Translations under genes and position numbers: made by a program
DNA from: an uncultured Candidatus Saccharibacteria bacterium
GTDB taxonomy: Bacteria; Patescibacteriota; Minisyncoccia; UBA6257; 1-14-0-10-44-23
Direction of reading: 5' to 3'
Length of the DNA stretch: 64,000 nt
Assembly (NCBI GenBank): GCA_964641225.1
Contig: CAZXKC010000002.1
Span: 52,893 to 116,892, forward strand
Shown: positions 3,038-46,835 of the stretch, in pieces
Numbering within the stretch: the first letter of the stretch is position 1
Layout: each line of letters starts with the position of its first letter
The notes under the pieces: model-generated
Databases searched by the model: none
The model's input: the letters and a program-made list of their open reading frames with translations, nothing else
What the model was told of the DNA's origin: nothing

Positions 3038-4552
3038 TTATCGTGCGTTAAGCGCAGCCTGTGTGGCTGGACCAACGTAGCCTTTTGCATCTATGCCGCG
3101 GGCAGACTGGAATTTCATAACTGCGGCCTGAGTGAGGGCACCAAAGTGGCCAGTCACCGAACCAGAGAAGTATCCAAGGTCTTTAAGGCGCTGTTGTAGT
3201 GCGCTTACTTCGGCACCATCTGAGCCCACATCTAAGAACTGCGTGAAGGTGTATGAGCTGGCTGAGACGCTGGTATTGCTTGTTGCCGAGGTTGAGGCGC
3301 CCATGGCTGTAGCCAGTTGATTGAGTGCTGTTGCCATAACCTGAATCTGGGCAAGCATTTGAGTAAGCTGAAGCTGCATGGCTTGAATGACTGAGGTGAG
3401 AGAGGCACCCGTGTTGACTGGGGTAGTGACTGCCGGAGTTTGTGTAGTGGTCGTTGTCCCCGTCGTTGTTGTACTACCGGTGACCGTAATGTTGAACGTA
3501 TTGCATCCGCCCGAGGTTCCACAGACGGTCATTGATGAGGTGCCGGCTCCAGTACCTGTTAGCGTGATTGTGTTGCCGCTGAGTGTTGCGTTTGCTACCG
3601 CCGGAGCTGGATTTGAGGTGACAAAATATGAAGAGGCGGTGCCGCCAACCGTCACGGTGAGCGACTGACCAACCGCAAGGCTTGGACTCATGTTGCTGAA
3701 GGTGACGGCCTGGCTACCGCTGGTGCTACCGCCTGTTGCACTTACGGTAATATTGAGCGTTCCGCAGCCGTTTGAGGTTGAACAGATTGTAATCACCGAT
3801 GAGCCAATCTGGTTACCGGAGACGCTGATTTGGCTGCCATTGATTGATACGGGGACTGTGTCCGGCATCGTGTTGCCGCTGACATAGTAGCCCGAGCCAC
3901 CCGTAGCGGTGATCACGAGAGTCTGGCCGGGGACGATAGTTGCACTTTGGTTGCTGAATGAAAGACTACCGGAGCTGCTACCATTTGTACTCACTGTGAC
4001 GTTGATCGTTCCACAGCCGCCGGTCTGCGCACAGACAGTAATAGTGCTATTTCCTGCGGCTAAGGCTGACAGTGAGGCGATGCTTCCATTTACAGAGGCG
4101 GAGACAATCGTCGAGTTACTATTGCCGCCGAGGTAGTAGCTGCCGTTGCCGCCGGAGATCGTAATTGAAAGACTTTGACCGATTGTCATCGTCGGCGCAT
4201 TTTGGCTAAACGATAACGCGCTGCTGGTTGTCTGAGTTCCATCAGTTACGGTTACTGAGAGGTTAGTACAATCCGTCGAGGTATTAACGTAACAGATACT
4301 GAGCGTAGTTGAGCCGAGTGAGGCGCCTACGATGGTGATCTGTGTACCGTTTATCTGGATTGAGGCAACGTTCGGGTTTGACGTGCTCATGCGGTAGACG
4401 GCTGTGGCCGTCGCCGTTGAACTTACTGTTGTTGATTGGCCCAGTCCAATAGTCACCGAGGTCTGATTCAGTGCCGGAGCGGCAAAGGCAACCGATGCTG
4501 CGGACAGTAATGCTACTGTCGCGGTCGCAAAAATACTAAGATATCGTTTCAT
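3038..4552 (-). CDS. Secreted surface protein with about five Ig-like tandem repeats and a C-terminal peptidoglycan-binding (PG_binding_1-like) domain
   Basis: Signal peptide MKRYLSIFATATVALLSAASVAFA. Repeated ~75-aa S/T/G-rich units each end in C..TGGCGT.N.TV. The C-terminus reads LQQRLKDLGYFSGSVTGHFGALTQAAVMKFQSARGIDAKGYVGPATQAAL. Confidence 0.7.
   Translation of the reverse strand: MKRYLSIFATATVALLSAASVAFAAPALNQTSVTIGLGQSTTVSSTATATAVYRMSTSNPNVASIQINGTQITIVGASLGSTTLSICYVNTSTDCTNLSVTVTDGTQTTSSALSFSQNAPTMTIGQSLSITISGGNGSYYLGGNSNSTIVSASVNGSIASLSALAAGNSTITVCAQTGGCGTINVTVSTNGSSSGSLSFSNQSATIVPGQTLVITATGGSGYYVSGNTMPDTVPVSINGSQISVSGNQIGSSVITICSTSNGCGTLNITVSATGGSTSGSQAVTFSNMSPSLAVGQSLTVTVGGTASSYFVTSNPAPAVANATLSGNTITLTGTGAGTSSMTVCGTSGGCNTFNITVTGSTTTTGTTTTTQTPAVTTPVNTGASLTSVIQAMQLQLTQMLAQIQVMATALNQLATAMGASTSATSNTSVSASSYTFTQFLDVGSDGAEVSALQQRLKDLGYFSGSVTGHFGALTQAAVMKFQSARGIDAKGYVGPATQAALNAR
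3415..4450. repeat. Intragenic tandem repeats of ~225 bp encoding Ig-like modules of the surface protein
   Basis: The protein units (…SFSQNAPTMTIGQSLSITISGGNGSYY… / …SFSNQSATIVPGQTLVITATGGSGYY… / …TFSNMSPSLAVGQSLTVTVGGTASSYF…) recur in register. Confidence 0.6.
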
Positions 4553-4609: not shown

Positions 4610-5836
4610 TTATTTCCACAAATTCCAGACGTGAGCGGCTACGTTGACTGGCGTACCTTCAAGCGGGAAGTGGTGTAAATCAATAAATGGCAAAGAATTG
4701 CATTCAATCACGCCCCACTGTTGTCTATTCGGATCTTGCGTGATGTCGGGGATGATAAAATCAAAGCCCATGACCGGAAAATCAACCAGTCGGCCAACTT
4801 CTTCTAATATTTTTTTTGTCTCCGGATGAGTGATTGCGATCTCCTCGGCTTTATATCCGCCATAGCCAATACCAATTTTCTCCATCACATCAATTGTTTT
4901 ACTCTGCGGTAATTTTGTCTCAAGCGTGTAGTTGTTGCGCGCCAAAAAATCCTCAATATACGGTGTTACGACAACCTCTTTTACTTCTGATTTGCGATGC
5001 TTATTTTTAAGTTCGATCAGCTCGCCAATGGTATGTTTACCATCGCCGGTGATGCGCGGTGGGTCGCCGCGCAGAACACCTACGAGCGTTCCGTTTACGA
5101 TCGTAGCACGGTACACGCTCCCAATGAGATGCTCCTCCATCACCAGACGCTCTGCGATCTGTTTAGCTGCCTTATATGCCTTTTTAAGCTGCTTTTCAGT
5201 ATAAATATACGTTGTGGTGTGCCGGCCCCGCGAGCCAAGCGCAGGCTTAATAATGACTGGTTTGCGCAGCATCTTAAAGACGCGCAACATCTCCTTCCAG
5301 GTTGTAAATCCGCCGCCGCGCGCGGCTGGCAGTCCTGCGGCTAGGATTTTTTCTTTGAGTTTAACTTTGTCGTCGAGCCACTGATTTGCGTCGGTATTTA
5401 AATGACGGGGAATTGGCAGGCTTTCAAAAAATATTGTTTCACCGTTAACGATCGCTGCATGAAAATCAGTCGGTTTACCGAACACTAGCATTTGTCTCAT
5501 CGGAATCCCGCGCGCCTGCGCCTCCTGCCAGATTACCTTTGAGCGACTGCTGCGGGATTTAGATATGTCGTCGTTAAAACGAATCACGCCCATTTTTTCA
5601 AAGGCATTGATAATGTAGGGCAGGGCATAGTGAAATGCCGGGTCAAAAAGTTTGCGCAGTCCAATTTTATATGCGAACTGGTCAATCGGATCCATTAACG
5701 CTGAAAAAATCTCATTTGTCTTAGCAAGACTGTGGGGGATTGGATTGTTGCCGCAGTAGTAGCATGGCCTCATGTTTTGAGTATACTTTATCCCGCGATC
5801 TAGACAAATTTGCATCAGCTCACGAAGGATCGCCAC
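4610..5836 (-). CDS. ATP-grasp family ligase (RimK / cyanophycin-synthetase-N-terminal-like); start codon uncertain
   Basis: VIIKPALGSRGRHTTT matches the ATP-grasp phosphate-binding pattern (VVKPxxGSxGxGV) and sits in a C-terminal grasp-like region. The annotated GTG start overlaps RNA-like element A; internal Met codons at 5815 and 5773 are alternative starts. Confidence 0.6.
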   Translation of the reverse strand: MAILRELMQICLDRGIKYTQNMRPCYYCGNNPIPHSLAKTNEIFSALMDPIDQFAYKIGLRKLFDPAFHYALPYIINAFEKMGVIRFNDDISKSRSSRSKVIWQEAQARGIPMRQMLVFGKPTDFHAAIVNGETIFFESLPIPRHLNTDANQWLDDKVKLKEKILAAGLPAARGGGFTTWKEMLRVFKMLRKPVIIKPALGSRGRHTTTYIYTEKQLKKAYKAAKQIAERLVMEEHLIGSVYRATIVNGTLVGVLRGDPPRITGDGKHTIGELIELKNKHRKSEVKEVVVTPYIEDFLARNNYTLETKLPQSKTIDVMEKIGIGYGGYKAEEIAITHPETKKILEEVGRLVDFPVMGFDFIIPDITQDPNRQQWGVIECNSLPFIDLHHFPLEGTPVNVAAHVWNLWK

Positions 5837-6044
5837 AAGGAGTAGGTTTACCTACTTCGAGGATGTCCCGACACAGAGATGATGCAAATTTGCCTGATCC
5901 CTTTGGGTTGCAGCCCGGCTGCCGCCTGATCTCGTTGCTCGCAAAAGCCCATGCTAAAGCATATTGTCTTTTGCGCACGCCGAGCCGGTCAGGCAGCCGG
6001 ATCAGCAACGCGGCGGAAAGATGCTCAGAGCATGGGGCTTAGCC
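5792..6044 (+). ncRNA. GC-rich structured-RNA-like element, copy A, of a two-copy family of unknown identity
   Basis: Shares the core ccgcgatctagacaaa … caaggagtag-hairpin-ctacttcgagga … gggttgc-hairpin … gagcaacgcgg with copy B. Helix sequences differ but remain complementary: A gacaaatttgcatc/gatgcaaatttgcc versus B gacaaaaacccgttag/ctaacgggtttttgtc, and A gtagg-ttta-cctac versus B gtagc-ttcg-gctac. Strand was inferred from the UUCG loop and a conserved G·U pair. Confidence 0.45.
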
Positions 6045-6062
6045 ATATTAAGGTATTGTATA

Positions 6063-6542
6063 ATGAAGCATATGGATGAACAAGAAATTATTTGGTCTTC
6101 GCCGGAATTCCATGTTGTAGAACGGAGCTCAAACTGGTATCTGGCTAGTTTAGTAGTTGCTGCCGCAATTGCTATATTTTGTTTGTTTCAGAAGAATTTT
6201 CTCTTTTTGCTCTTTGTGATCATCGCCGAGACAACGCTGCTTTTTATGACGAAACAAAAGCCGAAACTTTTTGGATATGAAATTACCAGTCAGGGGATTA
6301 CGGTTGATGATGTGCTGGTCTATAAATTCTCGGAAATGAACGGGTTTGCGATCGTTGATGACGGGGTCAGTATGTATGTTGAGCTGGTGATTCGGCCGAT
6401 AAAAAAGCTTGGTCAGTACGGCAAGATTTTATTGCCGCGGGTGATGACCGGTGAGGTGTTTGCAGTGCTTTCGCGATATACCTCGGAATTCAAATATGAG
6501 GAGACAATGACCGAGTCTATGATTAAGAGAATCGGGTTATAG
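6063..6542 (+). CDS. Membrane protein with bacterial PH-like (DUF304/YdbS-like) architecture
   Basis: Two N-terminal TM helices (WYLASLVVAAAIAIFCLF / LFLLFVIIAETTLLF) are followed by a beta-rich domain. ATG at 6063 (MKHMDEQ…) follows an AT-rich stretch. Confidence 0.55.
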   Translation: MKHMDEQEIIWSSPEFHVVERSSNWYLASLVVAAAIAIFCLFQKNFLFLLFVIIAETTLLFMTKQKPKLFGYEITSQGITVDDVLVYKFSEMNGFAIVDDGVSMYVELVIRPIKKLGQYGKILLPRVMTGEVFAVLSRYTSEFKYEETMTESMIKRIGL

Positions 6543-20653: not shown

Positions 20654-21574
20654 ATGGCCAAGATTGATGAGCTTCTTCAGGATTATTTGGATTATTTGAC
20701 TGTCGAGAAGGGGCGCTCGCCAAAGACGAGGCGTAATTACGAGCATTATTTGCGCGTATTTTTTAAGGATGCCGATATCAAGAAAGAAACAGATATTACC
20801 GAGCGCGTAGTTAAATCATTTCGTGTGCGACTTTCAGAGCAGCAGAGCGGTCGTGGTGGCGTGATGAAAAAGGTAACGCAGAATTATTACGTGATCGCGC
20901 TTCGCAGTTTTTTGAAATATCTTGCCAAGCATGATCATAACGTGATTGCCGCCGACAAGATTGAACTACCGAAAATTGCACAGCGCCAGATTGATATTCC
21001 TGAATATAAAGAGTTTGATCGACTGATGAGCGCCCCAGAGGGCGAAAGCCTGCGCGCACTGCGCGATCGCGCCATCTTAGAGACACTATTTTCAACAGGC
21101 CTGCGTGTTTCTGAGTTATGTAACCTGAGTCGCTACCTTGATCTGAGTCGCGGAGAGATAACCGTACGCGGTAAGGGTGAAAAACTGCGCGTGGTGTTTT
21201 TTTCAGATAGCTGTAAGGCAACGATAAAAAAGTATTTAGATGCGCGCGGCGATGCTATGGAGTGGATGTTTGTCAGTCTCACACGGGTTCCGAAGAAATC
21301 GCAGAAGCCACCGAAGGTGATCGGCAAAATAACTCCGCGTTCTGTGCAAAACATGGTGAATTTTTATTCCCGCAAAGCCGGGCTTTCTCAGAAGGTGACG
21401 CCACACAAGCTTCGTCACTTATTTGCCACTGACTTACTGATTAACGGCGCCGACCTGCGTTCCGTTCAAGAACTGCTTGGTCACAGCAATATTTCTACCA
21501 CGCAAATTTATACGCACTTAACTAATAAACAATTAGGGGACGTGCATAAGAAATTCCATGGAAAGCGGACGTAG
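20654..21574 (+). CDS. xerC: XerC/XerD-family tyrosine recombinase
   Basis: N-terminal SAM-like domain (LQDYLDYLTVEKGRSPKTRRNYEHYLRVFF). C-terminal catalytic motifs HKLRHLFATDLL…LLGHSNISTTQIYTHL. Confidence 0.85.
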   Translation: MAKIDELLQDYLDYLTVEKGRSPKTRRNYEHYLRVFFKDADIKKETDITERVVKSFRVRLSEQQSGRGGVMKKVTQNYYVIALRSFLKYLAKHDHNVIAADKIELPKIAQRQIDIPEYKEFDRLMSAPEGESLRALRDRAILETLFSTGLRVSELCNLSRYLDLSRGEITVRGKGEKLRVVFFSDSCKATIKKYLDARGDAMEWMFVSLTRVPKKSQKPPKVIGKITPRSVQNMVNFYSRKAGLSQKVTPHKLRHLFATDLLINGADLRSVQELLGHSNISTTQIYTHLTNKQLGDVHKKFHGKRT

Positions 21575-21610: not shown

Positions 21611-21692
21611 GCTCTCGTGGTGAAATTGGCAGACACGCCACCCTTAGGAGGTGGTGCCGCAAGGCATGGAGGTTCAAGTCCTCCCGAGAGCA
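21611..21692 (+). tRNA. tRNA-Leu (TAG)
   Basis: Acceptor GCTCTCG/CGAGAGC, anticodon stem CCACC/GGTGG with loop CTTAGGA, long variable arm TGCCGCAAGGCA, T-arm GGAGG-TTCAAGT-CCTCC, discriminator A. Confidence 0.85.
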
Positions 21693-21743: not shown

Positions 21744-22091
21744 CTAACCTTGTCCGAGCAACTGCGCAACTACGAACGATACTCCTTGTGCCAAGAAGGC
21801 GACGGCGATGGCAACTACTGCGTAGATGATGCGCTGGTGAGCTGCTTTAACTTTTTCTTCGTCACCACCAGAGGTCAGGTAAGCGAAGGCGGCCCAGATG
21901 ATCATCAGTACTGCGACAACGAGTAAAATAGTGAACAACCAGCGGATGACGGTGTCAAAAATACCAAGAACTCCTTCAAAGCTACGAATGCCTGGAGGCG
22001 GAGTCGTTGTCGGGATATCGATAGCCATAGCAGCTAGAGGCATAAAGGCTACGAATGCAATTGCGCTGATCGCGAGAATCTTTTTCTTCAT
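21744..22091 (-). CDS. TrbC/VirB2-like (T4SS-pilin-like) small secreted protein, a singleton copy
   Basis: Signal peptide followed by two TM segments around a short SGG..E loop (…IRWLFTILLVVAVLMIIWAAFAYLTSGGDEEKVKAAHQRIIYAVVAIAVAFL…). The same motif recurs in the 24583-27867 array. Confidence 0.6.
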   Translation of the reverse strand: MKKKILAISAIAFVAFMPLAAMAIDIPTTTPPPGIRSFEGVLGIFDTVIRWLFTILLVVAVLMIIWAAFAYLTSGGDEEKVKAAHQRIIYAVVAIAVAFLAQGVSFVVAQLLGQG

Positions 22092-22210
22092 ACGTTGTTA
22101 TTAATTTGTAAAACTTAATTCGTTAATTCAAGTATAACATATCTCTATGTGTATATAGCGGATTCGGTGGATAACGTACAGTTTGAATAGGGAATTTTTT
22201 GATCATTTGA

Positions 22211-22412
22211 CCTAGAGCCTGCTGAGAAACCCCCTCCGTACCGCGTTGCTCAGCCACAACGGCTGGCAACCCTCTGGGATCCGACAAAAACCCGTTAGCC
22301 CTTTGTCGGCTCGTCCTCGAAGTAGCCGAAGCTACTCCTTGCGGCGAGTCTTCTCGGTCTAACGGGTTTTTGTCTAGATCGCGGTTGAAGGGGGTTTCCC
22401 GGCAGGCTCTAA
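22211..22412 (-). ncRNA. GC-rich structured-RNA-like element, copy B
   Basis: On the minus strand the closing helix is agagcctgc-cggGAAACCCCCT paired with AGGGGGTTTC-tca-gcaggctct. Internal helices are gacaaaaacccgttag/ctaacgggtttttgtc, ggagtagc-UUCG-gctacttc and gttgc-cagcc-gttgt-ggctg-a-gcaac. It aligns to copy A with compensatory substitutions. Confidence 0.45.
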
Positions 22413-22435
22413 ATGCCACTAATATGCGCTAATAC

Positions 22436-22464
22436 TTGACAAAATAGATATAGTATGCTATACT
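22436..22464 (+). promoter_or_regulatory. Consensus sigma70-type promoter upstream of the GC-rich two-gene island
   Basis: TTGACA, then 17 nt (aaatagatatagtatgc), then TATACT (a TATAAT also overlaps at 22464-22469). Confidence 0.55.
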
Positions 22465-22713
22465 ATAATTCGTCAGTCGTGTACCTTGAAAACCTAGGTA
22501 TAGAGCCGTTTTTAGCGGTTTTATGCAATACCTTGCTCTAATTCGTCACGAAATGGGAATCGTATAGCTGATAATGCATAGTCAGCTATACAACTCCCGT
22601 TTCGTGTTAAGTTTGGTTCCTTGTGGAGCCAGCACGGATGGGGCAAGGGCTCTAGTGGCCCGACGCGGGCAAAAGAATGGCCCGCGTTAAGCGGCCATTG
22701 GAGGAGAAAGAAC

Positions 22714-24513: not shown

Positions 24514-24535
24514 CTATTGGAGAGGGAAATAAAAC

Positions 24536-24562
24536 CGGGCGGCCTGAGTAGGCCGCCCGGAA
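24536..24562. terminator. Bidirectional GC hairpin (ccgggcggc…gccgcccgg family)
   Basis: ccgggcggcctgagtaggccgcccgg, with an A/T-rich flank on the minus side, downstream of the pilin-like operon. Confidence 0.5.
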
Positions 24563-41247: not shown

Positions 41248-41262
41248 AAAGAAGATTTTTAT

Positions 41263-41300
41263 CCGGGCGGCGCACAAGCGCCGCCCGGTTGCTTTTTGAC
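41263..41300 (+). terminator. Rho-independent terminator (ccgggcggc…gccgcccgg family)
   Basis: ccgggcggcgcacaagcgccgcccgg followed by ttgcttttt. Confidence 0.6.
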
Positions 41301-46795: not shown

Positions 46796-46835
46796 TCCGG
46801 GCGGCGCGCAAGCGCCGCCCGGATTCGTTTGCGTA
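46796..46835 (+). terminator. Rho-independent terminator (ccgggcggc…gccgcccgg family)
   Basis: tccgggcggcgcgcaagcgccgcccgga followed by ttcgtttgcgtatttt. Confidence 0.55.

Follow-up and report, generated by a model that had tools for sequence, protein, structure and literature searches.

What are the two GC-rich, non-coding look-alike loci in the genome of an uncultured Candidatus Saccharibacteria bacterium? They lie in opposite orientation in a stretch of 64,000 nucleotides, here called the window (GenBank assembly GCA_964641225.1, contig CAZXKC010000002.1, positions 52,893 to 116,892). One, copy A, lies next to an ATP-grasp gene and the other, copy B, next to a pilin gene. An initial annotation, made from the letters alone, described them as a two-copy structured RNA. 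We consider it likely that A and B are two long-diverged copies of a protein-less mobile element that resembles MITEs (transposable elements that are miniature and have inverted repeats), has an RNA-like structured interior and belongs to an undescribed family that crosses phyla. We assign the element to the MITE-like class because it has inverted-repeat ends, direct repeats of 2-3 bp, a multi-copy family and orthologous loci that are free of it. What appeared to be a two-copy orphan RNA would thereby belong to a large family of structured mobile elements that is absent from catalogues and occurs in ultra-small Patescibacteria, soil phyla and Thermoplasmatales metagenome-assembled genomes (MAGs).

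Alignment of the two loci recovers every sequence block that had been listed for them, and exact-count searches agree. CCGCGATCTAGACAAA occurs exactly twice in the window (5793-5808 on the plus strand and 22369-22384 on the minus strand), as does CAAGGAGTAG-N8-CTACTTCGAGGA (5836-5863, plus; 22314-22341, minus), for which shuffled sequences give an expectation of zero. GATCCC, GGGTTGC and GAGCAACGCGG are further blocks common to A and B. The pair forms the longest inverted repeat of the window (119 nt, 71%), and the GC content is 55.7% in copy A and 58-59.5% in copy B, compared with 48.7% in the window. Between the blocks, the helices have unlike sequences while complementarity is kept, as first described and as both the alignment and the predicted folds bear out. 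The blocks and helices of the original structure therefore stand, but it overlooked an outer closing helix of ~22 bp that encloses each copy and whose sequence is completely different in A and B.

Both copies are predicted to fold more stably than shuffled controls, with minimum free energies (MFE) of -131.4 kcal/mol for copy A (z = -9.4) and -128.0 kcal/mol for copy B (z = -11.7). For the structural alignment we used four sequences: A, B, a copy from a Saccharibacteria MAG (L103) and a copy from a MAG labelled Harrisonbacteria (L042). The latter two share the CCGCGATC...GCAACGCGG core and also the long P3 arm of copy A. One multi-branched fold fits all four sequences (RNAalifold), and 29 of its 79 pairs show compensatory double changes. 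In pair counting on the same alignment, 94.9% of cells are paired, compared with 36-44% in slid controls, and none of 500 shuffles reaches any of five pairing measures. The compensatory change reported for these helices is thus genuine. Besides the outer helix, the fold comprises P1 (CCGC/GCGG), a P2 arm, which is long and has a GAUC/GAUC base, and a P3 arm (GUUGC/GCAAC), of which A, L042 and L103 have a long form and B a short one; a CCC/GGG mini-hairpin is a possible further part in the model. The tip of the P2 arm is an invariant hairpin, GGAGUAG-loop-CUACUUC, with a fixed G·U pair.

Two open reading frames (ORFs) span the copies (5740-6042 on the plus strand, 22123-22419 on the minus strand), and their shared peptides RDLDK, SPQGV and TSR could be taken to indicate a small conserved protein. 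The similarity is, however, confined to blocks conserved at the nucleotide level, as the initial annotation had held, and the reading frame is not maintained across the long insertion of copy A. Searched as an alignment, the translations of both ORFs match none of 5.8 billion proteins at E<=10, so that a coding role is refuted for practical purposes and the element is non-coding, as originally stated. The absence of a match to a known RNA family likewise held up, as neither copy matched a family of Rfam 15, among which are riboswitches, ribozymes, 6S, SRP, RNase P, tmRNA, Y RNA, GOLLD/ROOL and raiA. At the gathering score, Rfam 15 reports tRNAs alone in the window and tRNAs or rRNA in 28 family loci, none of them on the element. 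At E<=10, the two copies give just chance snoRNA and miRNA matches, and the models of the HEARO and IS605-orfB families match neither the window nor the family loci. Full-text searches of the literature turned up neither the motif nor MITEs in Saccharibacteria.

The element is not specific to this genome. A scan of a genome collection with the pattern GGAGTAG-N4-14-CTACTTCGAGG returned at least 116 loci; among the matches listed, about half are family members and the rest are chance matches in coding regions. The apical hairpin GGAGUAG-loop-CUACUUCGAGG marks at least ~50 copies in at least ~30 MAGs, and a covariance-model search of the fetched loci gives 51 matches at E<1e-4. This model (R1), which retained just the 7-bp apex stem, found no variant copies there. 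Among the matches listed, the Patescibacteria hosts include Saccharibacteria, Pacebacteria, Spechtbacteria, Peregrinibacteria and others. The list further includes Gemmatimonadota, Myxococcota, Solirubrobacterales (Actinomycetota), Verrucomicrobiota, Kiloniellaceae and Eisenbacteria, as well as two archaeal MAGs of the Thermoplasmatales. All members come from MAGs; the listed matches in isolate genomes are all chance matches in coding regions. MAGs with several copies carry at least 2-8, with at least eight in the Patescibacteria MAG Bin_050 and at least six and at least five in two Gemmatimonadota MAGs. The GC content of each element follows that of its host. With many copies in many phyla, it is not a two-copy RNA of a single genome. 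Searches of metagenomes with the pattern of the near subfamily gave one chance match, within a coding region. Viral contigs and BLAST against phages and plasmids gave nothing meaningful with A, B, an end fragment of L030, or near-full-length L007 and L077 as queries.

Members are ~160-330 bp long and share a nearly invariant apical module, RAA-GGAGUAG-loop-CUACUUC-GA-GG, together with conserved internal loops (CGAAG / CGACAAAG); the apical module of copy A is the signature common to the whole family. In the extended architecture, GGAG is preceded by an RA dinucleotide, and CUUC is followed by GA-GG and one bulged base; a flanking helix, an internal loop of the form CGAAG / C(G/A)AC(A/G)A and long self-complementary arms complete it. 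No recurrent neighbouring protein lies beside the copies, and the sole "conserved ORFs" are translations of the element itself. The idea that homologues might regularly flank genes for membrane or secreted proteins accordingly fails, as there is no consistent tie of this kind.

The ends of the family are inverted repeats of the form G(A/G)G...C(Y)C, often GAGCCTG. The pair GAGCCTG...CAGGCTC bounds copy B and members from Anaeromyxobacteraceae and Solirubrobacterales, and copy B has a perfect 9-bp terminal inverted repeat (TAGAGCCTG/CAGGCTCTA). Gemmatimonadota copies end in GGGTCCGCG...CGCGGACCC, and those of Bin_050 begin with GGGCTCTAGGAC. Inward extensions of the ends score ~9-33 by a custom inverted-repeat score, most clear cases lying above ~13. 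With an automatic rule, perfect 3-bp direct repeats flank 7 of 33 copies, compared with 4.7% of cross-element flank controls (P = 8e-4). The variable bases of the direct repeats match on the left and right, with TCA/TCA in L007, L012 and L030, TTA/TTA in L077, ATA/ATA in L059, GTA/GTA in L083 and AAA/AAA in L110. Reading by eye adds TAA/TAA (L055), and TA...TA flanks occur at copy B, L034 and L086.

Orthologous loci in relatives provide empty sites for both copies. The divergent pair formed by the ATP-grasp gene and a gene for a 156-amino-acid protein is conserved in two relatives that lack the element there (L121 and L122; 61-62% and 55-57% amino acid identity). The distance between the start codons is 15 nt in L122, 56-75 nt in L121 and ~300 nt in the window. 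Comparison with L122 places the insert of copy A at ~5783-6053, and homology with copy B and L103 places its left end at ~5766. From the L122 comparison, we considered that the 5' half of the outer helix of copy A might be host-derived, as an inverted copy of the target flank; the left end of copy A also aligns with the ends of copy B and L103. For copy B, the order divergent gene, gap, type IV secretion system (T4SS) pilin and tyrosine recombinase is conserved in five relatives (L123-L127), and an unfiltered model search found no element at these pilin loci. Removal of copy B improves the alignment of the window to L123, and the break falls at the inverted-repeat ends. L123 is from the MAG that also holds L103, and L125 shares a contig with L042, so that in those genomes the copy lies elsewhere.

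Terminal inverted repeats, 2-3 bp target-site duplications and empty sites overturn the earlier argument that compensatory change excludes a transposon. Compensatory changes are not enough by themselves to tell an RNA gene from the relic of a transposon. The family has the size (<~500 bp) and lack of coding capacity of MITEs, as well as their terminal inverted repeats, duplications and dispersed copies that are present or absent at orthologous sites. A different reading of the same features is a stand-alone family of structured non-coding RNA genes that is not mobile DNA and has spread by duplication and horizontal transfer. The terminal repeats would then be a long closing helix formed by the 5' and 3' ends for processing; Y RNA and 6S RNA have closing stems. 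Strong covariation, the G·U bias of the forward strand described below, an apex and internal loops conserved as is typical of protein-binding RNAs, and the failure to find a transposase all speak for such genes. They would not, however, explain 3-bp direct repeats that lie immediately outside the helix with matching variable bases, or at least eight near-identical copies in unrelated contexts of one genome. Nor would they account for element-free orthologous sites, copies that lie within a 16S rRNA gene or surround a tRNA gene, or copies that recombine with one another. We thus regard this reading as unlikely.

Several observations weigh against a MITE-like element all the same. The window and ~0.9 Mb of fetched loci yielded no autonomous partner in the form of a transposase gene or insertion sequence (IS) with these ends on either side. 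The ends of copy A are degenerate, which leaves its exact insertion boundaries ambiguous, the duplication at copy B is just 2 bp, and perfect target duplications occur mainly in the GC-rich lineages. The best-conserved part of the element is its interior, not its ends, and MITE families normally have a narrow host range and conserved ends rather than a conserved centre, so that this family shows the reverse. Part of the invariance of the apex is due to ascertainment, because all members were found with a fixed 18-nt pattern. In addition, the two strands fold equally in Patescibacteria of the Bin_050 type (-109.5 and -109.8 kcal/mol), and the arm of a member inserted in a 16S rRNA gene (L009) is antisense to the rRNA.

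The strand on which the initial annotation placed the fold is favoured or equal in every subgroup tested by consensus folding. Forward and reverse consensus energies are -146.1 and -89.6 kcal/mol in Gemmatimonadota, -60.4 and -47.9 kcal/mol in Myxococcota and Actinomycetota, and -74.5 and -68.6 kcal/mol in the near subfamily. The single-sequence MFE is better on this strand in 41 of 49 cases. Eleven closely related Gemmatimonadota copies show double changes at 20 of 78 pairs, and many positions go through U·G, C·G and U·A on the favoured strand; A·C is rare. In the outer helix of copy A, read by eye on the plus strand, four non-Watson-Crick positions are U·G wobbles and one is an A·G mismatch. 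Plain decay of a palindrome is expected to produce G·T and A·C mismatches equally. The departure from this expectation argues that the fold is selected and not merely inherited from the inverted ends. As shared ancestry accounts for many of the G·U cells, which are thus not independent of one another, the evidence for constraint at the RNA level is moderate.

With moderate confidence, and as far as sequence comparison goes, this strand-biased G·U pattern is what would be expected of a transcribed, folded RNA; strand-specific single-stranded DNA (ssDNA) appears less likely. Such a DNA site could be a substrate of an HUH enzyme (as in IS200/IS605 or REP-RAYT systems), of an integron integrase or of Xer, or it could be a single-strand promoter or origin used in conjugation. 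The strand-biased fold, the conserved hairpin with its fixed mismatch and the T4SS pilin (PF18895) and tyrosine recombinase genes beside copy B would suit it, but the same pilin and integrase synteny occurs in the five relatives without the element. HUH elements make no target duplication, and no plasmid or phage matches were found. The attC R''/R' consensus is RYYYAAC...GTTRRRY, and by eye the ends GAGCCTG...CAGGCTC do not match it. REP sequences are 20-40 nt long with a 5' GTAG. An element of 160-330 bp with 2-3 bp duplications does not fit the definitions of REP, attC or IS200/IS605 sites, and we consider a folded ssDNA site quite improbable.

For the MITE-like element favoured here, the features of the ends and duplications suggest that a DDE transposase of the IS5 superfamily type moved the copies in trans. 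Within this superfamily, the IS1031 and IS427 groups appear to agree with the family in these features, and the ends of IS1031 read GAG. Eukaryotic Tourist MITEs (PIF/Harbinger superfamily) are similar in their terminal inverted repeats and TWA targets. The duplications seen here (TCA, TTA, TAA, ATA, GTA, AAA and TA) and the GAG or GGG ends were compared with those of IS1031/IS427-type elements, which have a duplication of 3 bp (TNA) or of 2-4 bp and ends that read GAG or Ga/g. The IS1031 subgroup of IS5 prefers a TNA target (PMC1676026). No ORF for a DDE transposase (DDE_Tnp_1-type) adjoins any copy. In a non-autonomous derivative, the absence of a transposase between the ends is expected.

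Structurally, the element is predicted to form a long self-complementary rod or a three- to four-way junction that bears the apical module. Its working form is most likely an RNA of one strand, given the compensatory changes and the G·U intermediates that occur on one strand only in GC-rich lineages. This RNA would be co-transcribed with neighbouring genes or made from nearby promoters and would fold into a closed structure, and its ~22-bp closing helix makes it a predicted natural substrate of RNase III. The apex is a putative binding site for a conserved partner, either protein or RNA. It is conceivable, though we would not favour it, that the interior is a functional RNA (a ribozyme, a module that binds a protein or the ribosome, or a factor that assists or regulates its own transposition) that travels between bacterial phyla and archaea as a miniature transposon. 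What is unusual is that deep conservation, with covariation of the RNA type, is found at the centre of a MITE and not at its ends. Should the apex bind a conserved factor, the family would represent a new mobile RNA module; otherwise, its annotation is still useful, as it guards against mistaken ORF calls (5740-6042, 22123-22419 and a start at GTG 5836) and accounts for lineage-specific changes of promoter regions in reduced genomes.

The gene context bears on another possibility, that each copy is a cis-regulatory leader, such as a riboswitch or thermosensor, of the membrane-protein or pilin gene downstream. Each copy lies upstream of a gene on the same strand, and a multi-way junction with conserved unpaired bases would suit a leader. 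The promoters are misplaced for this role, however, as the TATAAT of the 156-amino-acid protein gene and the extended -10 of the pilin gene both lie downstream of the copies. That TATAAT (6057-6062) is 7 nt before ATG 6072, a start that agrees with the public gene call. Orthologous genes in relatives lack the element, and the family has no consistent gene association or orientation. A leader is thus largely refuted and retains very little probability. ATG 5773 of the ATP-grasp gene, on the minus strand, is preceded at a distance of 6 nt by TATACT (5789-5784), a layout shared by relatives. As a -10 box precedes the ATG on each strand, copy A lies between two divergent core promoters, and its 5' end overlaps or supplies the -10 box and the start-codon region of the ATP-grasp gene. 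Orthologues of the ATP-grasp protein start with M-x-x-C-x-Y-C-G-N-N at the position that matches ATG 5773, so the gene most likely starts at 5773-5771 on the minus strand. The reported overlap of copy A with the start region of this gene consequently holds for ATG 5773, but the annotated GTG at 5836 is probably not the true start. From the spacing of -10 boxes and start codons, genes here appear to be leaderless. Copy B lies between a near-consensus promoter (22436-22464, plus strand) and the pilin gene's own extended -10, with the PF18895 pilin gene and a Phage_integrase gene as neighbours, and is not an obligatory leader of either adjoining gene.

Among known systems, the family can be set beside Correia/NEMIS elements of Neisseria, ERIC/IRU of Enterobacteria and QMITE of Coxiella, which are also small, lack an ORF, have terminal inverted repeats and short duplications, and occur as many intergenic copies. 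Transcripts of Correia, ERIC and QMITE elements form very stable stem-loops, to which we liken the fold predicted here from sequence. MITEs have terminal inverted repeats, direct repeats that decay and stable transcript hairpins, and RNase III cuts Correia transcripts at their paired ends (PMC10969869). Unlike those elements, which are confined to a genus or family and conserved at their ends, the family described here spans several phyla and Thermoplasmatales MAGs. It also differs from them in its conserved module of apical hairpin and internal loop, its covarying helices and, in the Patescibacteria subfamily, a branched core. The 3-bp TNA or 2-bp TA duplication and the GAG or GGG ends appear to resemble those of IS5 (IS1031/IS427) and PIF/Harbinger with its Tourist MITEs. 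In contrast to IS5, no locus holds a transposase gene with these ends, and the link is through end and duplication features only. HEARO, the IS605-orfB motifs and the IS110 bridge RNA likewise combine a covarying RNA structure with a mobile element and multiply with it. Those RNAs lie beside a protein gene, have a free guide segment and belong to elements without target duplication, whereas this family has no associated protein and a fold closed by its own ends. HEARO and the IS605-orfB motifs were later recognised as the omega RNAs of IscB and TnpB, which are transposon guide RNAs, and their history indicates that such elements can hide new biochemistry. Finally, rRNA intervening sequences and Rickettsia palindromic elements are palindromic insertions that are tolerated in RNA genes because they extend a helix, and one member here lies in a 16S rRNA helix; unlike this family, they are lineage-restricted and lack a conserved apical module, and the rRNA copy here is antisense. 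The coordinates of the two copies and their parts are listed in Table 1.

Table 1. Positions in the window of copies A and B and of their structural parts
Feature	Position	Strand	Basis or remark
Copy A, whole	~5766-6042	+	Locus reading, alignment
Copy A outer closing helix, 5' strand (degenerate left terminal repeat)	5766-5789	+	Pairs with 6015-6039; aligns with copy B left end and L103
Palindromic -10-like AGTATACT	5782-5789		Overlapped by copy A left end
Copy A core	5793-6013	+	RNAalifold and pair counts on four-sequence alignment
Copy A P1 CCGC/GCGG	5793-5796 with 6010-6013	+	
Copy A P2 base GAUC/GAUC, then long arm	5797-5800 with 5896-5899	+	
Copy A apical module CAA-GGAGUAGG-UUUA-CCUACUUC-GAGGA	5836-5863	+	Hairpin with invariant G·U pair, asymmetric internal loops
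Copy A P3 arm GUUGC...GCAAC	5907-6009	+	Conserved tip AAAGCCCAUGC-UAAA-GCAUAUUGUCUUU common to L042 and L103
Copy A outer helix, 3' strand (degenerate right terminal repeat ...CAUGGGGCU), then TAG	6015-6042	+	
Copy B, whole element	22213-22411	-	Locus reading, folding, insertion relative to L123/L124
Copy B left end TA / GAGCCUG	22409 down to 22403; TA 22410-22411	-	
Copy B core CCGCGAUC...GCAACGCGG	22241-22384	-	Long P3 arm of copy A replaced by a short hairpin
Copy B apical module CAA-GGAGUAGC-UUCG-GCUACUUC-GAGGA	22314-22341	-	
Copy B right end CAGGCUC / TA	22221 down to 22215; TA 22213-22214	-	

Some individual members have unusual arrangements, which add signs of mobility and recombination at the level of DNA. 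In L009, a ~120-nt family arm with the apical module (4963-5087) is inserted in the 16S rRNA gene at model positions 181-198. The same gene has a second insertion of 80 nt near position 80, and the MAG, labelled Pseudomonadales, looks mis-binned. The element of L114 (~3935-4322) has a complete tRNA-Glu gene (4089-4164) nested on its own stem in the junction, on the opposite strand, and the 5' end of the element adjoins 60 nt that repeat part of this tRNA. Two copies lie head-to-head in L005 (1020-1454), ~150 nt apart. Three Gemmatimonadota loci (L040, L055 and L094) carry copies that are identical in the 3' half but differ in the 5' half, and such shared and swapped halves point to recombination or gene conversion among copies. 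L040 and L048 contain additional end-like sequences, which are solo remnants next to ordinary genes.

Other candidate identities were tried and rejected. A kink-turn at the apex, prompted by the occurrence of GGAGUAGC in Kt-23 of 16S rRNA, was set aside because GUAG pairs with CUAC here; in Kt-23 constructs, the corresponding strand faces a bulged GA strand. For tRNA-like elements, retrons, bridge RNA, the Frpo ssDNA promoter, oriT and attC, the defining motifs or partner genes are lacking.

The layout of -10 box and ATG is seen at 5771-5789 and 6057-6074 in the window, at 555-633 in L121 and at 325-353 in L122, where the two -10 boxes overlap inside the 15-nt spacer. Near copy B, the order of a tRNA (21611-21692), the tyrosine recombinase (20654-21574) and the T4SS-type pilin (21744-22091, PF18895) is conserved in the Patescibacteria MAGs L123-L127, and with this conserved gene order the recombinase looks like a core protein of the XerC/D type and not like part of an island. 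The transcript predicted from the promoter TTGACA-17-TATACT (22436-22464) starts with a strongly structured leader (22465-22640, plus strand; MFE -69.7 kcal/mol, z = -8.6). A hairpin in this leader (22547-22606) has a foot, ACGAAAC.GGA / TCC.GTTTCGTG, that is conserved in L123 and L125-L127 and has no Rfam match. The leader may function as an operator or as a cis-regulatory RNA in its own right. Elsewhere in the window, a GC-rich perfect hairpin, TCCGGGCGGCGC-loop-GCGCCGCCCGGA, is followed by T-rich sequence and occurs in several copies (41261-41296, 46796-46830 and 24533-24561). A second hairpin family has the form AAAACCGCC-TTCG-GGCGGTTTT, and both hairpin families are probably intrinsic terminators.

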